Assembly: GCA_964441285.1 (NCBI GenBank)
Contig: CAYTUK010000005.1
Span: forward strand, 3,596-67,595
From: an uncultured Thiotrichaceae bacterium
GTDB lineage: Bacteria > Pseudomonadota > Gammaproteobacteria > SZUA-229
DNA length: 64,000 bases
Reading direction: 5' to 3'
Part shown: positions 2,079 to 60,941 of the stretch, in pieces
Layout: each line of letters opens with the position of its first letter
Numbering within the stretch: position 1 is the first letter of the stretch
Notes under the pieces: generated by a model
Database searches by the model: none
What the model was told of the DNA's origin: nothing
Seen by the model: only the letters and a program-made list of their open reading frames with translations
Translations under genes and position numbers: made by a program

Positions 2079-2244
2079 TCGTATTTTACCGCACCACATA
2101 TTGATAGAGCACCTGTCCATGCAGCGCCGAATTGCCTAAGCAGCCACTACAAGGCCATAACCAGGTTACACATACTCTGGCGACACCGTTGAAGGAAAGC
2201 CACTCCCTTTAAATTCATTGAGTTCCGAAAAAAGTAAACGACTT

Positions 2245-2266
2245 ATTACTGAAATGGATGAAAAGG
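2245..2266. repeat. Solo left terminus (ATTACTGAAATGGATGAAAAGG) of the palindromic extragenic element family
   Basis: It is identical to the first ~22 nt of the full copies at 13001 and 15377 but has no core. Confidence 0.5.
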
Positions 2267-2547: not shown

Positions 2548-2675
2548 ACTAACAGTACAGATGAAAAGGATACTCATTGTTCAAGACCGTTAGCCGCAAG
2601 AATGCGGGTGTCGAGTCTACAGAGATATATTCACCACAGTCTTAAACAATGAGTATTCTTTTCATTCGTTTCAGC
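2548..2675 (+). repeat. Palindromic extragenic element, full copy D (arm 2560..2587, core, arm 2639..2666)
   Basis: Left arm gatgaaaaggatactcattgttcaagac pairs with right arm gtcttaaacaatgagtattcttttcatt at 25 of 28 positions. The core is cgttagccgcaagaatgcgggtgtcgag. The termini are ctaacagtacagatg on the left and cgtttcagc on the right. Confidence 0.8.
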
Positions 2676-2699
2676 AATAAAACACTAAGGAGCAATAAA

Positions 2700-3437
2700 A
2701 TGGATTTAACAGGATGTCTATCAAACACAGGAAATAAAACAAGCATTACTGCATTTCTTGCCATGAGTTCACTAACTCTGAGTTCACTAATTTTTACCGC
2801 AGAGGCAAATGCCGCCATTATTATCAATGAAGTTGACTATGACCAACCCGGAAAAGACCGTGCCGAGTTTATTGAACTGTTTAATAATGGGAGCCATCGT
2901 GTTTCGCTTGAAGGGTATAGCATTAAGCTAATAAATGGCGCAAAAAATACCACTTACCGGACCATTAACCTGGATACATTCAATATGAATGCAGGTGGTT
3001 ATTTTGTTATCTGTGGTGATTCCACTCGAGTTGAAAACTGTAATTTTGATTTCACAAATAAAACCGGCTGGATACAAAATGGCGCTCCTGATGCACTGGC
3101 ATTATATGATCAACGGCATATTGTGGATTCGCTATCGTATGAAGGCAGCCTGTCGCCATATACAGAAGGCGCGCCTGTTATTGCCAAAGACAGCAACAAA
3201 CTCATCACTGACCTGTCTCGCCTGCCAAACGGGATTGACAGTAACGTCAATCGTACTGACTTTAATTTAGGATGTATCACACCGGGTACAGCCAACATTG
3301 CGGGAACAGGTAACTGTTCAACAGTGAGTGTGAGTGCAGTTCCTGTTCCTGCAGCTATCTGGCTATTAAGTTCAGGTTTGGCTGGTTTTATAGGTATCGG
3401 TTATAAAAAGAAGATAAATAAAACAGTTACATCCTGA
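2700..3437 (+). CDS. Secreted lamin-tail-domain (LTD) protein with a C-terminal VPLPA/PEP-CTERM-type sorting signal (putative exosortase substrate)
   Basis: An AAGGAG RBS lies 8 nt before ATG 2700; the six-frame ORF start at 2649 runs through the repeat element. There is an N-terminal hydrophobic signal (…AFLAMSSLTLSSLIFTAEANA). The LTD-like segment is IINEVDYDQPGKDRAEFIELFNNGS. The C-terminus is VPVPAAIWLLSSGLAGFIGIGYKKK, that is a motif followed by a TM helix and a basic tail. Confidence 0.8.
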   Translation: MDLTGCLSNTGNKTSITAFLAMSSLTLSSLIFTAEANAAIIINEVDYDQPGKDRAEFIELFNNGSHRVSLEGYSIKLINGAKNTTYRTINLDTFNMNAGGYFVICGDSTRVENCNFDFTNKTGWIQNGAPDALALYDQRHIVDSLSYEGSLSPYTEGAPVIAKDSNKLITDLSRLPNGIDSNVNRTDFNLGCITPGTANIAGTGNCSTVSVSAVPVPAAIWLLSSGLAGFIGIGYKKKINKTVTS

Positions 3438-3485: not shown

Positions 3486-3490
3486 TTTAG

Positions 3491-3575
3491 TTACTGAAAC
3501 GGATATTTATGGTTCAAGACCGTCAGCAGGGATGCGATGTCGAGCCGACATGGATGTATTGGCAGCGTGTCGCTG
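3491..3575 (+). repeat. Palindromic extragenic element, copy E (left arm and core present; right arm degenerate)
   Basis: ttactgaaacggatatttatggttcaagaccgtcagcagggatgcgatgtcgagccgacatggatgtattggcagcgtgtc. No matching right arm is visible before the tyrS stop. Confidence 0.65.
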
Positions 3576-3588
3576 ATTTGAAATAATT

Positions 3589-4788
3589 TTAACGTACAGA
3601 AAGTTTTGCAAACTTGCGTTTACCTACCTGGAAAACAGCCTCGGTACCTGATTGAATTCTGATTGATTTATCCGCTATTTTTTCACCATCAATTTTTACT
3701 GCACCCTGCTGAATCATCCGCATAGCATCACTGGTGCTAGAACACAATCCTGCGTCTTTTAATAAATTGGCAATCGGATAACCTTCATCGGATGCATCAA
3801 AATTCAATTCAGGAATATTATCCGGTATTTTATTTTTAGCGAACTGCGCAATAAAGCTTTGTCGTGCTGATGTTGCTGCCTGCACAGAATGAAACCGTGT
3901 AATAATTTCTTCCGCCAGTAAAAACTTGACATCGCGTGGATTTTTACCCTGATCAATTTCCTGCCTGAAACCTTCGATTTCAACCATTGGGCGGAAACTT
4001 AATAATTCAAAATAACGCCACATTAACGCATCAGAAATTGACATGATTTTACCAAACATATCATTGGGCGCATCATTAATACCAATATAATTGTTCAATG
4101 ACTTGGACATTTTTTGCACCCCGTCCAGCCCTTCGAGAATCGGCAGAGTGAGTACACACTGTGGCCTTTGTCCGTGTTGTTCCTGTAATTGACGCCCCAT
4201 TAACAAATTAAACTTCTGGTCAGTGCCACCCAGTTCTATGTCCGCTTTCATCACCACTGAATCATAGCCCTGAATTAAAGGATAGAGAAACTCGTGTATC
4301 GCGATCGACTGCCCACTTTTATAGCGTTTACTGAAATCATCACGTTCCAGCATTCTAGCAACCGTGCTGCGGGCGGCAAGCTTGATCATCTCGGCACTGC
4401 TCATTTGAGCCATCCATTGTGAATTAAACAAAATCTGTGTTTTCTCTTTATCCAGAATTTTGAATATTTGTGTCTGATAAGACACAGCATTATTCTCAAC
4501 ATCTGTTTGCGTCAGTGGCGGACGAGTTACTGATTTTCCAGTAGGATCGCCAATCATGCCGGTAAAATCGCCAATCAGAAACATGACTTCATGTCCCAGA
4601 TCCTGAAACTGGCGTAATTTATTGATCAATACGGTATGTCCAAGATGTAAATCCGGCGCGGTTGGGTCAAATCCAGCTTTAATACGCAGAGGTCGTCTTT
4701 CATTTAGCTTTGCTATTAACTCCTTTTCGACAAGAATTTCATCTGTGCCGCGCTGAATTATCTCAAGTTGCTGCTCAATGGACTTCAT
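3589..4788 (-). CDS. tyrS: Tyrosyl-tRNA synthetase
   Basis: 399 aa with [10 protein letters not shown] (HIGH) and KMSKS. It is divergent from the M23 peptidase, as in Pseudomonas. Confidence 0.95.
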
Positions 4789-12407: not shown

Positions 12408-12875
12408 TCAAACAAACTGCTCCAGCTGCCTTAACACCTGCTTATAAACTTTACGTTTAAAAGGCACTATTTCACCCAGTGGTGCCCAGTAATCAACCCA
12501 GCACCAACGATCAAATTCGGGTTTATCGCTACAACCCAAATTAACATCATTTTCGTTCCCCACCAGACGCAGATAAAACCATATCTGCTTTTGCCCTATG
12601 CACAAAGGTTTGGAGTGGTGGCGCAATAAATGCTCAGGAATACGGTAACGTAACCAGTCATCCGTCCGACCAATCACCTGCACATGCCGCTCACATAAAC
12701 CCGTTTCTTCATACAGCTCACGAAACATTGCCTCAATGGGAGATTCATTCTCGTCGATCCCACCCTGTGGAAATTGCCAGGCATTTTGCCCGTTTCTGCG
12801 TGCCCAAAATACTTTACCGTCATGGTTACCGAGTACTATTCCAACATTCGCCCTAAAACCATTAGAATCAATCAC
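12408..12875 (-). CDS. rppH: RNA pyrophosphohydrolase (Nudix)
   Basis: Nudix box GGIDENESPIEAMFRELYEETG. The length is 155 aa. Confidence 0.9.
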   Translation of the reverse strand: MIDSNGFRANVGIVLGNHDGKVFWARRNGQNAWQFPQGGIDENESPIEAMFRELYEETGLCERHVQVIGRTDDWLRYRIPEHLLRHHSKPLCIGQKQIWFYLRLVGNENDVNLGCSDKPEFDRWCWVDYWAPLGEIVPFKRKVYKQVLRQLEQFV

Positions 12876-13000
12876 TTAAAAATCTCACTTATCATCCGTT
12901 GTATTATTCAACGAAATACTGGTGCGAATAAATACGATTATTGTATTTATCATAACAGACCACACAGAAAATATAAGTTTAAACTCAGGAAATATTTTAT

Positions 13001-13132
13001 ATTACTGAAACAGATGAAAGGGCTACCTGGTGTTCGAGACCGTCAGTCGCAGGGATGCGGGTGTCGAGCTTACATGGAAGTATTTACAGCGTGTCTTGAA
13101 CACCAGGTAGCCTTTTCATCCATCCTGTTAGC
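13001..13132 (+). repeat. Palindromic extragenic element, full copy A (arm 13013..13040, core 13041..13092, arm 13093..13120)
   Basis: The 28-bp arms are gatgaaagggctacctggtgttcgagac and gtcttgaacaccaggtagccttttcatc. They are complementary except for two positions that would be G·U in a plus-strand RNA. The core is cgtcagtcgcagggatgcgggtgtcgagcttacatggaagtatttacagcgt. Confidence 0.85.
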
Positions 13133-13219
13133 ATGTATCGATAGACAAAGATTATTTGAGCCAGGGAACCGTAACAGGTAGTATCGCCATTAATTTTTAT
13201 TATTATTAAAATTTACCAC

Positions 13220-13876
13220 ATGTCACTCGCACTATTTGATCTGGACAACACGCTGCTCGCCGCTGATAGCGACTATCTATGGGGCATTTTTCTGGCAGAA
13301 AAAGGCCTGGTAAACTCGCACAGTTATGAAGCAGCCAATCAACAATTTTACGCGCAGTACAAAGCCGGTACACTGGATATTGATGCATTTCTCACTTTTT
13401 CACTACAGGCATTAAGCCAACATCCAATAAAAAAGCTGGACGCTCTGCATAAAACGTTTATGCAAAAATATATTCAGCCGGTTATGACAGCCAAAGGGCA
13501 GCAACAAATTCAATATCACAAAGAACAGGGTGACAGTATTATTATTATAACTGCCACCAATCGATTTATCACCCAGCCCATCGCCGAAGCATTTAGTGCC
13601 GATGCACTGATCGCGACTGAAGCTGAAATTGTCAATGGTCGATACACGGGTAAGACTGAAGGGATACCCTGTTTTCAGCAGGGAAAAATTGAGCGTTTAA
13701 ACCAGTGGCTGGCCAAGACTGGATATAATATGGATAACAGCTGGTTTTACAGTGATTCACATAACGATATTCCTTTGCTGGAAAAAGTCACTTTCCCAAT
13801 TGCCGTTGACCCGGATGATAAATTAAAAAAACACGCCAAAGCAGCAGGGTGGCCGATAAAAAGTTTTAGAGATTAA
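13220..13876 (+). CDS. HAD-IB family hydrolase (phosphoserine-phosphatase-like)
   Basis: LFDLDNTLL (DxD motif) and …GKTE…DSHNDIP are HAD motifs. Confidence 0.8.
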   Translation: MSLALFDLDNTLLAADSDYLWGIFLAEKGLVNSHSYEAANQQFYAQYKAGTLDIDAFLTFSLQALSQHPIKKLDALHKTFMQKYIQPVMTAKGQQQIQYHKEQGDSIIIITATNRFITQPIAEAFSADALIATEAEIVNGRYTGKTEGIPCFQQGKIERLNQWLAKTGYNMDNSWFYSDSHNDIPLLEKVTFPIAVDPDDKLKKHAKAAGWPIKSFRD

Positions 13877-15284: not shown

Positions 15285-15376
15285 AAACTCACCTCTATGC
15301 CCTTACCTTCATATAGAAAACAACGAATTCTAACAGACTAAACATTAATTCGATAACAAGATATTAATATGGACCT

Positions 15377-15504
15377 ATTACTGAAATGGATGGAACAGAT
15401 ACTTATGGCTCAAGGCCGTCAGCAGCAGGGATGCGGGTGTCGAGCTTACATGGATGGATTAACAGCGTGTCTTAATAATAAGTATCTGTTTCATCCATCC
15501 TGTT
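15377..15504 (+). repeat. Palindromic extragenic element, full copy B
   Basis: The arms are atggatggaacagatacttat and ataagtatctgtttcatccat. They are complementary but differ in sequence from the arms of copies A, C and D. The core is cgtcagcagcagggatgcgggtgtcgagcttacatggatggattaacagcgtgtc. Confidence 0.85.
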
Positions 15505-15574
15505 CGTCATACTGGGCTGGACTCGGCAGGGCTATACGGGCGTTGAGATTTTGTATTTCTATCGAGTATTTTAG

Positions 15575-20103: not shown

Positions 20104-20308
20104 AGATTCCCCCAGCTTTTACTTATTAAGGATATATATTCTGGGAAAATAACATAATAAGCAGAAAAATAGCAACTGCAATGGTCTAATGCCACCCGAC
20201 TCTTTAATAAGAGATAATAATTATCAACGATTAAGGTGTCATAATGAGTCAAAAACGAACATACAAAACAATATCACTGTTCCTTTAATGATCAGTGATA
20301 TGAATCGG

Positions 20309-20388
20309 GGTTTATTGCTGTGGCCGACTGCCGCATGGAAACGGCAGTCGAGCGTACGGGGATGTATTTACAGCGGGTTACAGCAATC
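20309..20388 (+). repeat. Divergent variant (F) of the palindromic element; its right arm overlaps the apbC stop codon
   Basis: cgactgccgcatggaaacggcagtcgagcgtacggggatgtatttacagcg. The core hairpin is replaced by ctgccg/cggcag but keeps GTCGAGC…GTATTTACAGCG. The arms ttattgctgt and acagcaatcaa are different from the other copies. Confidence 0.6.
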
Positions 20389-21517
20389 AATTGTTTTGAA
20401 TAATAATATTCGGAAATTTAGCTGAATAGTCTTTTGCCTTAAGTGATAATCTGGCTGCTGTGCGACGAGCAATATCACGATAAATCTGACTGGTTTTGCT
20501 ATCAGGGTCATCCGCTACGCTGGGATGGCCTTCATCCACATTGACTCGAATATTAATGTCCAGGGGCAGAGCACCAAGAAAATCCACATTGTACTGCTCG
20601 CTCATGCGGTTGCCACCACCGGCACCAAAAATATGCTCAGCATGGCCACATTCAGAACAGATATGAATACTCATATTCTCAACAATACCCAGCACTGGAA
20701 CTTCCACCTTCTCAAACATTTTCAGACCTTTACGTGCATCAAGCAACGCAATGTCCTGCGGTGTAGTAACAATAATTGCGCCACTAACCGGTACTTTTTG
20801 CGCCAGCGTTAACTGGATATCGCCAGTACCTGGCGGCAGGTCAACAATTAAATAATCCAGTGATTTCCAGCGCGTATCACGCAGTAATTGCTCCAATGCC
20901 TGCGTTACCATTGGGCCACGCCAGATCATTGGTGTTTCTTCATCAATCATAAAACCAATTGACATTGCCTGTAATCCATGTCCTCCCATTGGCTCCAGTG
21001 ACTTACCATCACTGGACTCTGGTTTTCCCTTGATACCTAACATGCGCGGAATACTGGGGCCGTAAATATCAGCATCAAGAATACCCACGCGGGCACCTTC
21101 CTGCTGCAATGCCAAAGCGAGATTGACTGCGGTAGTTGACTTACCCACACCACCTTTGCCGGAAGCCACAGCAATCACATTCTTGATGCCTTCCAGTGGG
21201 TTCATACCACCCTGGACAGAGTGACTGCCAATTTCCCAGCTTGCATCCACCTGTGCAGTGGCGATACCATCAACAGCTTCAATTTTTTCTTTCAACTCAG
21301 CACTTAAGCCATCAACAAAACCAAACGCTGGATAACCCAGTACAACTTTTACTTTGACTGCATTACCTTCAATAGTAATATCTTTAACCGCACCCGCTGT
21401 AACTAGATCTTTCTCCAGATTCGGATCAATATACTGTTTCAGGGCTTGTTCTACCTGTTCTTTTGTTACGCTCATGGCGGAAACTCCACAACTAAATAAT
21501 ATAAACTGGATGTGCAT
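20387..21517 (-). CDS. apbC: Fe-S cluster carrier ATPase ApbC/Mrp
   Basis: P-loop GKGGVGKST and CxxC (CSEC). It is divergent from metG as in E. coli. Confidence 0.92.
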   Translation of the reverse strand: MHIQFILFSCGVSAMSVTKEQVEQALKQYIDPNLEKDLVTAGAVKDITIEGNAVKVKVVLGYPAFGFVDGLSAELKEKIEAVDGIATAQVDASWEIGSHSVQGGMNPLEGIKNVIAVASGKGGVGKSTTAVNLALALQQEGARVGILDADIYGPSIPRMLGIKGKPESSDGKSLEPMGGHGLQAMSIGFMIDEETPMIWRGPMVTQALEQLLRDTRWKSLDYLIVDLPPGTGDIQLTLAQKVPVSGAIIVTTPQDIALLDARKGLKMFEKVEVPVLGIVENMSIHICSECGHAEHIFGAGGGNRMSEQYNVDFLGALPLDINIRVNVDEGHPSVADDPDSKTSQIYRDIARRTAARLSLKAKDYSAKFPNIIIQNN

Positions 21518-33541: not shown

Positions 33542-33583
33542 ATTGTTTGTGTTATGTTGATTTTTATGAGAAATATCTAAGCT

Positions 33584-33714
33584 ATTACTGAAACAGATGA
33601 AAAGGATACTGGTTATTCAAGACACGCTGTCAATACATTCATGTAAGCTCGGCACCCGCATCTCTGCGGCTGACGGTTTTGAATAACCGGCATCCTTTTC
33701 ATCCATCTTAGTAA
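33584..33714 (-). repeat. Palindromic extragenic element, full copy C (inverted orientation) between parE and parC
   Basis: Arms gatgaaaaggatactggttattcaagac and ttttgaataaccggcatccttttcatc. The core is the reverse complement of the family core (gctcggcacccgcatctctgcggctgacgg). Confidence 0.85.
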
Positions 33715-35769: not shown

Positions 35770-36513
35770 CTACTTATCTAACACGGCAACCAGTTTATTT
35801 ACCGGCACATAACCCGGCAACATTTCGCCATCCTCTAATATGATTGATGGCGTACCACGTACACCAAGTTGATTTGCAACCTGCATCTGTTTATTTAGTG
35901 GATTAGCACAGGTTTTCTCCGCAACATTCCCCCCTGCTTTGACCATATTCATCGCCTTGTGTCTATCATCCGCACACCAGACACTTTCGGTCTTCCTCTT
36001 GTCACTCTCGCCTTTAAGTGGCATAAAGATATACCTGACTTCTATATTATTTTTCATATATTCAGGCATTTCACTATGCAATCGACGGCAATAGGGACAA
36101 TCTACATCCGTTACTACGGTAATTACATGATCGACTTTCTTAGGCCGGTAAATTAGCATATTTTTCTCACCCAGGCCGGCGATTAGCTTTAATCGCATGG
36201 CCGCTTTTGCCTTCTCACTGTAATTTTTTCTGGTTTTTAAATTAACCAGATCACCATCAATCATATAGCGTGCATTAGCGTCCATGTACACCACCTGGCT
36301 ACCAACAATGACCTGATATAAACCCGCAATGGGGGTCGTTGAAATATTGCCAACAACTAACGAAGGTAAACGTTTGGTGAGCGCTTTTTTTAATGTAGCA
36401 ACGCCTTTATCCACTGCCTGGGACGGAATAACACCTTTACCTGCTCCCGCCGAAATAGCAACAACAGGAGAAAGAAGTGAAACCGCTAAAATGCATATGG
36501 AAGTAATTTTCAT
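35770..36513 (-). CDS. dsbC: Thiol:disulfide interchange protein DsbC/DsbG
   Basis: Signal peptide and the CPYC active site. Confidence 0.88.
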   Translation of the reverse strand: MKITSICILAVSLLSPVVAISAGAGKGVIPSQAVDKGVATLKKALTKRLPSLVVGNISTTPIAGLYQVIVGSQVVYMDANARYMIDGDLVNLKTRKNYSEKAKAAMRLKLIAGLGEKNMLIYRPKKVDHVITVVTDVDCPYCRRLHSEMPEYMKNNIEVRYIFMPLKGESDKRKTESVWCADDRHKAMNMVKAGGNVAEKTCANPLNKQMQVANQLGVRGTPSIILEDGEMLPGYVPVNKLVAVLDK

Positions 36514-36768
36514 TTTGAAATAGCCTGCCTAAAATTGTCTAGTGTTACGATAAAGAAGTACATTCATGCACTAGGGACATTAAATACTGAAGTAAATTTC
36601 ATCATCATACTATAATTTTTACTGAAGCCCACCCTGAAATTAGCTAAAAATAACACACGCCACACCTTATACCACCCAGGTAACAGACTAAATCAATAGA
36701 TCTGAATTTTATTTAAAATCAATAATCTATACCTATATATTACTGAAACAACAGTTTTCACCCAAAAC

Positions 36769-36838: not shown

Positions 36839-37303
36839 TTACGCTTTAGCTTTTTTACGACTATGGCGCTTGCCTGGCTTACTTGCTTTGTTAATTTTAG
36901 CCATTTCTTTCTTCGTCCAGCTTTCAGCAAAGCGCATAACCGCTGCTTCTTTGCGTTCCGCCATCTTCAGTAACATTTCCTGACGTTTCCTGGATTCAGC
37001 TACTTCAGCCTTTGCGGCGGCGAGTGCAGCTGTGGTTGCAGCTACGTGCTCACGCATTTTCTGCTTAGCAGCAGACGCGATGGCATTTTTCTTCGCCGCA
37101 ACAACCTTTTTCTTCGCTACTAAAGCTTTCTTCTTAACTGCGGCAACTTTTTTCTTCGCCGCAGCATTTTTTGCAAGTTTTTTATTCACTGCTTTTTTTG
37201 CCGTTGTTTTTTTCTTAACTGTCTTTTTATTTACTGGTGTTTTCTTTTTAACTGCACGTTTTGTCGTCATTTTTTTCTTGCTTGCTGTAGAAGTTTGCGC
37301 CAT
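36839..37303 (-). CDS. Histone H1-like Lys/Ala-rich nucleoid-associated protein (AlgP/BpH1/Hc1-like repeats)
   Basis: KKKTPVNKKTVKKKTTAKKAVNKKLAKNAAAKKKVAAVKKKALVAKKK repeats followed by an Ala-rich helical tail. Confidence 0.75.
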   Translation of the reverse strand: MAQTSTASKKKMTTKRAVKKKTPVNKKTVKKKTTAKKAVNKKLAKNAAAKKKVAAVKKKALVAKKKVVAAKKNAIASAAKQKMREHVAATTAALAAAKAEVAESRKRQEMLLKMAERKEAAVMRFAESWTKKEMAKINKASKPGKRHSRKKAKA

Positions 37304-38263: not shown

Positions 38264-38330
38264 ACTAACAGTACAGATGAAAAGGCTCCCCTTGTTCAAG
38301 ACCGTCAGCCGCAGGGATGTATTCACACAG
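38264..38330 (+). repeat. Palindromic element, internally deleted/truncated copy G
   Basis: actaacagtacagatgaaaaggctccccttgttcaagaccgtcagccgcagggatg, then tattcacacag. The core is missing about 23 nt and there is no right arm. Confidence 0.65.
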
Positions 38331-60575: not shown

Positions 60576-60595
60576 TTCATTCGTTTCAGTAATAC
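60576..60595. repeat. Solo right terminus (TTCATTCGTTTCAGTAATAC) of the palindromic element
   Basis: It matches the right end of copy D and is the reverse complement of the left terminus GTATTACTGAAACGAATG. Confidence 0.5.
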
Positions 60596-60736
60596 TTAAA
60601 TAAGAAATTCTCTCTGATACAGGAAAACCCTGCTCTATGCCCCTATGCATCATTCGTGCAAGGGCGTTCTTTTTTTGTTTTCAATAGCTTATCATATAAC
60701 CGAGAATAATGGCGTATCCACATGTTACACAACACT

Positions 60737-60816
60737 TACTAACAGGACGGATGAAAAGGATATTTAATTATTCAAGACCGTCAGCCGCAGGGATGCGGGG
60801 TGCGTTTCAGTAATAC
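60737..60816 (+). repeat. Palindromic element, internally deleted copy H (left arm plus half core, joined directly to the right terminus)
   Basis: ttactaacaggacggatgaaaaggatatttaattattcaagaccgtcagccgcagggatgcgggg|tgcgtttcagtaatac. Confidence 0.7.
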
Positions 60817-60941
60817 CACTGAGCTATATAAAAAAGATATTCTGTGTTCAAAATTAATCGAAGCTTCCTTAAATATTTTTTCCAACGCAAACTATAGGTT
60901 ACAATCTGTCTATTATCTAGCAACAGTGACAGGAGACCGGT

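Follow-up and report, generated by a model that had tools for sequence, protein, structure and literature searches.

Positions 13001-13132 of a 64-kb stretch of contig CAYTUK010000005.1 hold a long imperfect palindrome with an asymmetric centre, and the question raised by this locus is what kind of element it represents and why its arms stay paired. The whole stretch that was analysed (64,000 nucleotides, hereafter the window) contains four full copies of the element of 127-130 bp, four partial copies and three solo ends, all of them intergenic, which amounts to about one element per 8 kb. A preliminary description of the window had proposed a family of palindromic extragenic elements with a conserved core and copy-specific compensatory arms, and had taken the compensation to imply selection for a long hairpin or a hairpin-recognising transposition mechanism. 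Our favoured reading, to which we assign a probability of roughly 0.7, is that the family is a TA-duplicating transposable element of the miniature inverted-repeat kind (MITE), a distant relative of the Yersinia palindrome YPAL, with a core resembling that of the TwoAYGGAY RNAs and a putative function at the RNA level. MITE families with hairpin-forming, covarying arms are well known, among them ERIC, YPAL, bcr1 and Correia; elements of this kind are known, and as a family this one is ordinary, its novelty being that of a variant found in a new host lineage. It is of interest mainly because it explicitly connects YPAL, TwoAYGGAY and transposition.

Anatomy and insertion of the element

Limits of the element are given without the flanking TA, and core(+) denotes the strand that carries the conserved core as read in the copy at 13002-13131. 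The element consists, in order, of TA, a 12-nt terminus, an arm of about 27 nt, an asymmetric core of 52 nt, the second arm, the second terminus and TA. The two types of terminus noticed earlier are real and turn out to be the two non-identical ends of one element, TA followed by TTACTGAAAC and TA followed by CTAACAGGAT, which differ mostly by transitions. The two ends can also be written TA|CTAACAGGATGG... and ...GTTTCAGTAA|TA. Its inverted ends are imperfect and about 39 nt long, the inner 28 nt being on average 87% complementary.

Copies outside the window were sought by scanning metagenome contigs for exact matches to a 26-nt degenerate pattern inside the core, which gave at least 117 further stretches. 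The first 80 of these at least 117 loci contained 159 matches to a covariance model derived from the window's four full copies (whose own scores of 138-156 bits, E 1e-31 to 1e-35, are circular by construction). A search with nhmmer over the window and 117 loci, about 0.95 Mb, found 176 sites, of which 86 are near-full copies with unique flanks. These 86 loci, among the matches listed, refute local segmental duplication as the source of the family.

The dinucleotide adjoining the element is TA on the left of 60 of 68 copies and on the right of 60 of 68, against a background of 9.7%; both sides carry TA in 53 of the 68, and the direct repeat is never longer. Tandem copies have one TA in common (locus L137). 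A filled and an empty site could also be compared, locus L062 reading TA-element-TA and the homologous site in L131 a single TA. The sequence shared by these two loci is a repeat of about 190 bp with about 91% identity (L062 at about 130-460, L131 at 3807-3990), found on two contigs of the same assembly. Because of the TA flanks, the filled and empty pair and the 86 loci with unique flanks, we conclude that the repeats do not derive from local duplication and are a TA-inserting, TA-duplicating, non-autonomous MITE of about 128-130 bp: they are small, non-coding and dispersed, they have terminal inverted repeats, and their TA target duplication is accompanied by a filled/empty pair. A double hairpin of the TwoAYGGAY kind thus rides on a bona fide transposable element, as the TA duplication and the empty site show.

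Relative to the two ends, the core occurs in both orientations (about 50 copies against about 12), mixed even inside one arm subfamily, as would be expected if the arms recombine or if template switching between them inverts the core. Copies have often decayed, and the decay takes the form of truncated copies, of an internal deletion that leaves both ends (60737) and of a 23-bp deletion between GGATG repeats (38264).

The strict TA duplication with long inverted ends suggests that the element is mobilised in trans, most likely by a TA-specific DDE transposase of the IS630/Tc1-mariner type, an assignment that is drawn from the TA duplication. Small TA-duplicating MITEs such as Correia/NEMIS, RUP and Nezha have been linked to IS630-type transposases (PMC3184786, PMC2229807). 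The present family resembles them in being non-coding and intergenic, with terminal inverted repeats, a TA duplication, predicted RNA hairpins that are stable, and polymorphism of filled and empty sites; unlike them, it is most conserved at the centre and not at the termini, and its inverted repeat covers almost the whole element and covaries. The search for a parent element covered pairs of solo termini, partial matches, repeated open reading frames (ORFs) and Pfam searches of repeated and unannotated window ORFs, and returned only housekeeping and signalling genes; within the roughly 1 Mb of DNA flanking copies that was covered, no IS had ends like those of the element.

Covariation of the arms

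In each full window copy the arms are mutually complementary over 28-39 nt at 82-93% according to the repeat finder, with G.U pairs on the plus strand, just as the preliminary description had stated, and among the four copies double compensatory changes occur in 8 of 37 predicted pairs. Covariation was tested statistically on an almost ungapped alignment of 46 distinct copies, the controls being partners slid by 1-3 columns and 500 shuffles. In this alignment 87.1% of cells are paired and double changes are found in 26 of 49 pairs; double-change cells number 160, compared with 26-47 in the slid controls, and none of the 500 shuffles is as high. Over a 10-nt variable zone of the arms, complementarity is 88.9% within a copy as against 62.9% across copies, a result reached by none of 2000 permutations. 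By the alignment and by the within- and cross-copy comparison alike, the arms covary far beyond chance, and the covariation reaches Yersinia YPAL, in which the arms are entirely different and still paired.

The further claim that the arms are copy-specific was overstated. There are 40 left-arm haplotypes among 66 copies, and variants are common to subfamilies, the ATACTTATTG arm type being present in 18 of the 66 and arms of the CTACCTGGTG type in several. Since arm variants are common to subfamilies, and since one subfamily has undergone a burst of 46 copies (see below), many compensations were inherited from a few master copies. Lineages that keep propagating would need only the pairing of the arms and not their sequence, with compensated variants arising in master copies and then passing to subfamilies.

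The consensus folds more stably on the core(+) strand (-62.9 kcal/mol) than on the other (-54.6 kcal/mol), and so do three of the four full window copies. We infer that propagating lineages depend on the pairing of the arms, the simplest reason being that a single-stranded core(+) form, probably RNA, has to fold.

The core and its two hairpins

Within the core, two hairpins are predicted, with loops CAGGGAUG and yUACAKGGAUGU, and in the predicted folds of both the consensus and the YPAL core the two GGA triplets are exposed in loops at a distance of 23 nt. For hairpin 1, 63 of 86 copies have the sequence CAGGGAUGC; in the copy at 13001 this hairpin carries GGA in its loop and a CARGGAUG motif at 13049-13058. 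The second hairpin has ACA conserved at 98-99% and GGA at 91-94%, with variation at the positions between and around them, and reads ACAGGGAUGU in 20 copies. Loop 1 reads AGGGAU; in loop 2, AUGGAU accounts for 64% of copies and AGGGAU for 34%. The consensus obtained for CsrA by systematic evolution of ligands by exponential enrichment (SELEX), RUACARGGAUGU, has invariant ACA and GGA, with a preference for GGA in a hairpin loop (PMC4347634), and the consensus of hairpin 2 almost equals it. In the 26 copies that do not contain the search pattern, pairwise identity is 79-82% over the core against 65-71% over the arms. An additional helix, considered on account of linked changes at core columns 67 and 91, was rejected, as the two columns are a subfamily marker and their neighbours cannot pair.

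If the core(+) strand is transcribed, the arms would form a basal helix of about 35 bp presenting two small hairpins, and these would be two near-consensus CsrA/Rsm sites in the architecture of TwoAYGGAY. We tentatively predict that transcribed copies could bind a Csr/Rsm protein or affect neighbouring mRNAs, although the odds are somewhat against it. The near-perfect SELEX match of the second hairpin makes a simple binding experiment possible.

Orientation was examined relative to stop-to-stop ORFs. Between co-directional genes, 25 copies are in sense and 7 in antisense orientation (p=0.002), and the downstream gene is co-oriented in 51 cases and opposed in 26 (n=77, p=0.006). Only a weak replication-strand bias emerged, orientation being associated with local GC skew 43 against 25, with gene orientation as a confounder. 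No consistent sigma-70 promoter or intrinsic terminator was present inside the element in the three copies examined.

Relationship to described families

The preliminary description could match the element to no named family, which proved too cautious: a described relative exists in YPAL/RU-2, part of which is the Rfam family Ysr224 (RF02770), and the core also has the architecture of TwoAYGGAY. A comparison with Rfam gave nothing at gathering thresholds. The Yersinia palindromic sequences YPAL/RU-2 were reportedly described by De Gregorio et al. in 2006 and by Delihas in 2007. When the consensus was compared with plasmids by blastn, two Yersinia plasmids matched over the core (E=2e-3 in 7.3 Gb); the loci concerned agree with RU-2/YPAL as published, and their score on Ysr224 is 133.9 bits. 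The model of the window copies in turn finds YPAL at 53.2 bits (E=1.7e-9 in 562 kb), with paired arms of unrelated sequence. Copies of the family score 15.6-25.9 bits on Ysr224, for which the gathering score is 70; the copy at 33585-33711 is the only window copy with a sub-threshold Rfam match in the scan of the whole window (Ysr224, 23.9 bits).

Like YPAL, the family consists of palindromic insertion sequences that are non-coding, lie between genes in multiple copies and can fold as a long hairpin. Its core shares with YPAL the succession of CGTC, a hairpin with an (A/G)GGAU loop and then TCGAGCYTACATGGATGTATTTACRGCG, a block in which 28 of 30 positions are identical, and the termini are loosely similar (ACTGCTGACAAAC in YPAL and TTACTGAAAC here). 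Unlike in YPAL, the stem of the first hairpin is of another sequence, the arms are AT-rich, the length is 128-130 bp instead of 167-168 bp, and the host is an uncultured marine gammaproteobacterium and not Yersinia or Pectobacterium; the Rfam model Ysr224 is moreover built on the opposite strand. YPAL has been reported to lack TA termini, to insert at dyad symmetries after stop codons with duplications of 3-26 bp, and to be mobile and cotranscribed with genes, affecting mRNA levels (PMC2229807). Copies of the present family tend instead to be directed at the downstream gene and not to follow an upstream stop. The family connects YPAL, which has been described only in Yersinia and is also listed as the small RNA Ysr224, to a distant uncultured marine lineage, with arms that have been exchanged completely yet remain paired and with another mode of insertion.

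TwoAYGGAY RNAs occur in multiple copies in Pseudomonadota, and their AYGGAY loops have been proposed as Csr/Rsm sites (bioRxiv 10.64898/2026.09.22.753630). An expansion like that of a mobile element was suspected in the same work, of September 2026, and its link to a Csr/Rsm role was left open. The Rfam model RF01731 (TwoAYGGAY) matches two copies in locus L057 on the core(+) strand with 34.7 and 28.7 bits, the gathering score being 43, and no window copy is among the matches. In the alignment the arms correspond to the basal stem and hairpins 1 and 2 to the AYGGAY hairpins, with GAUACU / AGUAUC shared in the stem. The family is like TwoAYGGAY in having a basal stem with two successive AYGGAY-type hairpins, a strongly varying copy number and a place in Pseudomonadota; unlike it, loop 1 is AGGGAU, with R and not Y at the second position, and most copies miss the E-value cut-offs. 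No extension of the Pseudomonas type and no flanking array of 5-6-mers was seen, though no search was aimed at them. Judged by these comparisons, the family is a distant YPAL homologue with a TwoAYGGAY-like fold that passes neither Rfam threshold. An authentic TwoAYGGAY member on an Agathobacter rectalis plasmid (NZ_CP143948.1, at 60-340 of the retrieved stretch) lies inside a much longer perfect palindrome, with outer arms of about 45 nt (CCGCAGGTCACCGCCTGCCGGGCAACGCACATACTCCCCGTAAGC...) that reach well past the Rfam model, a sign that this member, too, is perhaps an inserted palindromic element.

A wider proposal, which we consider speculative and on balance unlikely, is that YPAL, this family and the TwoAYGGAY RNAs form one mobile superfamily with a conserved pair of high-affinity CsrA/Rsm-type hairpins as cargo, or that the folded single strand is the mobilisation signal. 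In the first case, sense insertion into untranslated regions would subject host transcripts to regulation by Csr/Rsm, or would titrate the regulator itself. In the second, a folded single strand with two GGA loops would act as a cis signal for some mobilising enzyme and would explain three features together, since a centre more conserved than the ends, the arms under pairing constraint only and the tolerance of wobble pairs on one strand in propagating lineages would all follow.

ERIC (RU-1, or IRU) is an imperfect palindrome of about 127 bp with TA ends, which is intergenic, abundant in some genomes and produces hairpin RNA in Yersinia (PMC3184786, PMC2229807). Our element is like it in size, TA termini, palindromic shape and intergenic position. 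Membership in ERIC, which GC content and size had suggested, was rejected, as the host is not an enterobacterium and the sequences are not similar: blastn against 5,426 E. coli genomes gave nothing at E <=10, local and global alignments to an authentic ERIC copy equalled the mean of shuffles, and the window-copy model gave no ERIC match. ERIC has another core, with GTGAATCCCCAGGAGCTTACAT / AAGTAAGTGACTGGGGTGAGCG at its centre, to which our family shows no homology, and it has no AYGGAY hairpins; only the decamer GAGCTTACAT is common to both.

Alternative explanations

Several results weigh against the reading of the family as a YPAL-related MITE with a folded single-stranded form. The sole empty site lies in the paralogous repeat of about 190 bp and is not a strict orthologue, and neither the window nor the approximately 0.95 Mb around other copies yielded an autonomous parent or a transposase. 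Unlike YPAL, the family makes a strict 2-bp TA duplication, so that its insertion chemistry differs from that of its closest relative. The matches to both Rfam families (RF02770 and RF01731) are below the gathering score, and an authentic Bacillota TwoAYGGAY member gave no match to the window-copy model. Pattern-based sampling and the detection method favour conserved cores and inflate core conservation; 25 of the 86 copies, among them 2549-2677 and 33585-33711, have lost one or both GGA motifs; sense copies retain GGA no better than antisense ones; and the orientation counts depend on ORF calls that are crude. No csrA gene was found in the retrieved locus DNA, a negative that is uninformative at this coverage. 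Lastly, on the core(+) strand G.U exceeds A.C by 168 to 55 cells, but counted as distinct events the numbers are 34 and 22 (not significant) and among singletons 14 and 11, and private mismatches are strand-symmetric, with no bias towards keeping the structure.

It follows from these counts that the asymmetry was inherited from propagating lineages, and that mutations after insertion look neutral. Selection for the hairpin at each locus is not supported, in view of the symmetry of private mismatches, of the loss of both GGA motifs in two of the four full window copies and of the abundance of truncated copies. Single copies would mostly decay neutrally after insertion, given the truncations, the lost GGA motifs and the strand-symmetric private mutations.

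The best of the alternatives, which we nevertheless regard as unlikely, is a purely DNA-level MITE with neither a single-strand nor an RNA role, the palindrome of which corrects itself. One arm would be copied onto the other by template switching in replication or by mismatch repair of an extruded hairpin or cruciform, subfamily inheritance would multiply a few such events, and the GGATG hairpins would be a DNA site for a protein (transposase or host factor) or would be hitch-hiking. The subfamily-wide arm variants and the near-identical burst agree with this, as do the symmetry of private mismatches, the independence of GGA retention from orientation and the occurrence of the core in both orientations, as recombination or template switching between inverted arms produces; the deletion exactly between the GGATG direct repeats indicates slippage. 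G.T mismatches are, however, those that mismatch repair corrects best, yet inherited G.U/G.T pairs persist, with the strand bias in cells given above. Copies are also biased to the sense orientation, and the stems differ among the family, the variant at 20309 and YPAL while the loops stay CANGGAUG-like, which points to a structure with specific loops of the sort typical of a single-stranded ligand. The agreement with an RNA-binding SELEX consensus would, moreover, have to be a coincidence.

Much less probable is that the copies are host-domesticated regulatory RNAs, kept as cis-elements or as a Csr/Rsm sponge in the manner of TwoAYGGAY proper, with mobility that is only historical. The architecture and loops do agree with those of TwoAYGGAY and with the CsrA consensus, conservation is higher in the core than in the arms, copies are biased to the sense orientation, and 51 of 77 point towards the downstream gene. 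Against domestication, the syntenic sites of the nearest relatives are without copies, many copies are truncated or internally deleted, both GGA motifs are lost in two of the four full window copies, and sense copies keep GGA no better; the TA duplication and the empty site, together with the recent burst, are signs that the element is still mobile.

A remnant of a hairpin-dependent single-stranded DNA transposon, of the IS200/IS605 PATE or REP/RAYT type suggested in the preliminary description, would account for the long hairpin with copy-variable stems, the tolerance of G.T on one strand, the same orientation of seven of the eight window copies under uniformly negative GC skew and the weak association of orientation with skew (43 against 25), but it is very improbable, as is an IS200/605 TnpA/TnpB or RAYT parent, in view of the 2-bp TA duplication at both ends, of a length of 128-130 bp with inverted ends of about 39 nt, and of the absence of any Y1/HUH, TnpB or RAYT gene from the window and from the repeated ORFs around other copies, IS200/IS605 and REP elements having no target duplication and no terminal inverted repeats, and REPs measuring 20-40 nt.

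Distribution and host lineage

The further stretches come from the sister assemblies VAOW, VAOX, VAOZ, VAPF, VAPG and VAPL, from the UOFG-UOFJ assemblies and from marine-sediment metagenomes. The DNA of the window itself is also found in metagenome assembly GCA_006240815.1 (VAOX01...) and in runs SRR6439355/56/61. Short-read contigs of the same organism end inside copies (for example 15378-15506), as expected of a high-copy repeat, and the practical effects of the element in this lineage are broken short-read assemblies and spurious ORF starts. Orthologous copies across sister samples are identical and carry no information on evolution in situ. Runs SRR6439355 and SRR6439356 differ by a 14-nt indel between a 226-aa ORF and dcd (dcd at 1656 and 1642, respectively), which indicates variation in the population.

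The gene content of the window is not enterobacterial. The HAD protein has its best match among species representatives at 59% identity, the matches being to unclassified Gammaproteobacteria and Thiotrichales bins, and the nearest relatives in a large protein collection are 69-74% identical, one of them named Thiotrichales. No copy was found in the 20 kb of syntenic DNA from each of the two nearest relatives, which have 70-72% amino-acid identity and in which the spacer between rppH and the HAD gene is correspondingly shorter. The element is likewise absent from 36 syntenic loci of more distant Gammaproteobacteria, and it gave no match in viral contigs, so that a phage origin is without support. 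Strings of the element sequence had no match in the published literature. The MITE has spread to very high density in an uncultured, Thiotrichales-like gammaproteobacterium of marine sediment and in its relatives.

In one metagenome bin (assembly UOFJ01), a single subfamily is represented by 46 near-identical copies that lie within an extended repeat. These loci (L044-L159; for example L071 1945-2084, L121 2730-2864 and L116 351-485) form a longer, recent composite repeat, in which about 40 nt on the left (partly up to 120) and about 40 nt on the right are additionally conserved, including a tandem ATGCTGGCCGTATAA duplication, and many contigs end there. Beside element copies on one UOFJ contig (L080, 181-347) there is a match to the Rfam model of group II intron D1-D4 of 30.4 bits, with a gathering score of 32.

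Copies in the window

The coordinates of all copies and solo ends are given in Table 1. A repeat finder run independently of the preliminary description (direct families D1-D8, inverted repeats I4, I7 and I9), together with the covariance model and nhmmer, recovered all eight copies that had been listed, with coordinates correct to within a few bases, and the solo termini at 2245, 36738 (listed as 36739) and 60576 are present as well. The shared core is present too, but most copies are more diverged than the 55-nt consensus that had been offered for it, which is matched with three or fewer mismatches only at 13041 and 15417 (0 expected).

Table 1. Element copies, parts and solo ends in the window, with limits given without flanking TA.
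Feature	Position	Strand	Remarks
Full copy, 130 bp, subject of this report	13002..13131	+	L-terminus, core(+), R-terminus; model 156 bits; I9 arms 28 nt, 93%
Left arm of this copy	13002..13040	+	
Core of this copy	13041..13092	+	
Core hairpin 1 (predicted fold)	13044..13063	+	CAGUCGCA-GGGA-UGCGGGUG; pairs 47-54 with 59-66
Core hairpin 2 (predicted fold)	13069..13084	+	UUACAUGGAAGUAUU; family consensus yUACAKGGAUGUA
Right arm of this copy	13093..13131	+	
Full copy, 129 bp	2549..2677	+	R-terminus, core(+), L-terminus; TA at 2547-2548 and 2678-2679; 138 bits; I7 arms 30 nt, 90%
Full copy, 129 bp	15378..15506	+	L-terminus, core(+), R-terminus; TA at 15376-15377; 139.5 bits
Full copy, 127 bp	33585..33711	-	core(+) on minus strand; TA at 33583-33584 and 33712-33713; 146 bits; I4 arms 39 nt
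Partial copy	3491..3575	+	model match 3487-3604, 43 bits
Short divergent variant	20309..20388	+	model match 20288-20404, 41 bits
Decayed copy	38264..38330	+	nhmmer (38264-38319); repeat finder D3, D4, D6
Internally deleted copy, both ends kept	60737..60816	+	model match 60735-60861, 23 bits
Solo left end	2243..2266	+	TA followed by TTACTGAAATGGATGAAAAGG, then unrelated sequence; D8; 17.9 bits
Solo terminus-like 12-mer	36738..36749	+	TATTACTGAAAC; too short to tell from chance alone
Solo right end	60576..60594	+	TTCATTCGTTTCAGTAATA (reverse complement of L-terminus); I14; 140 bp upstream of the 60737 copy

The four full copies have fold energies of -46 to -64 kcal/mol, with z scores of -4.4 to -9.1 against shuffles. 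The copy at 13002-13131 (-64 kcal/mol, z -7.35) is flanked by TA at 13000-13001 on the left and by a degenerate CA at 13132-13133 on the right, and lies between two divergent genes, rppH on the minus strand (12408-12875) and a histidinol-phosphatase-like HAD gene on the plus strand (13220-13876). The copy at 2549-2677, between glnS and an LTD-domain gene, has both GGA loop motifs mutated (GAA, GAGA), and that at 15378-15506, between dcd (minus) and a rhodanese gene (plus), has both intact. At 33585-33711 (-59.5 kcal/mol, z -9.1) both motifs are again mutated (AGA, GAA); the neighbouring parC and parE-like genes are both on the minus strand, so that this copy is in sense orientation.

Among the partial copies, that at 3491-3575 has its left terminus fused to a shortened arm, small deletions in the core and no right arm, and folds no better than shuffles (z +0.23). 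The variant at 20309-20388 has a basal stem of about 12-16 bp made from different arms (UUGCUGUGGCC / GGGUUACAGCAA), without the outer arms and termini. Its first hairpin has another stem (CUGCCG...CGGCAG) with the loop CAUGGAAA, its second is ACGGGGAUGU, and the two-hairpin plan is kept (-34.9 kcal/mol, z -2.8). The copy at 38264-38330 retains the R-terminus and left arm intact, has lost the right arm, and lacks 23 bp of the core, exactly between its two GGATG repeats (GCAGGGATG joined to TATTCACA). At 60737-60816 the order is R-terminus, left arm, hairpin 1 and then directly the L-terminus (GCGTTTCAGTAATA).

The copies in the window are situated among housekeeping genes, including glnS, tyrS, rppH, a HAD phosphatase, dcd, apbC, parC/parE, lptF/G and feoB. 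GC skew is negative over the whole window (1-64000), and the plus strand carries the core in seven of the eight element copies.

In several copies the element has one frame without a stop over its full length (e.g. ...QGCGCRAYM...LTACL...), which gives rise to spurious ORFs, such as that at 12774-13181; Delihas is said to have made the same open-frame observation for YPAL/RU-2 and ERIC. The ATG at 2649, in the right arm of the copy at 2549-2677, starts the longest ORF of the LTD-domain gene (2649-3437). The same gene as called in locus L038 starts later (245 aa, not 262), so that the element creates a spurious N-terminal extension.

Two minor features of the window do not involve the element. 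A weak match to the Rfam model CRISPR-DR40 at 36033-36067, in a dsbC-like gene (31.3 bits against 42, E=0.74), involves one unit without any array and is most likely due to chance. The minus-strand ORF at 36839-37303 encodes 154 aa with no Pfam match and contains three 21-nt tandem units at 37083-37159 (family D9); the repeat is rich in lysine and alanine and recalls histone-H1-like or AlgP-type DNA-binding tails.

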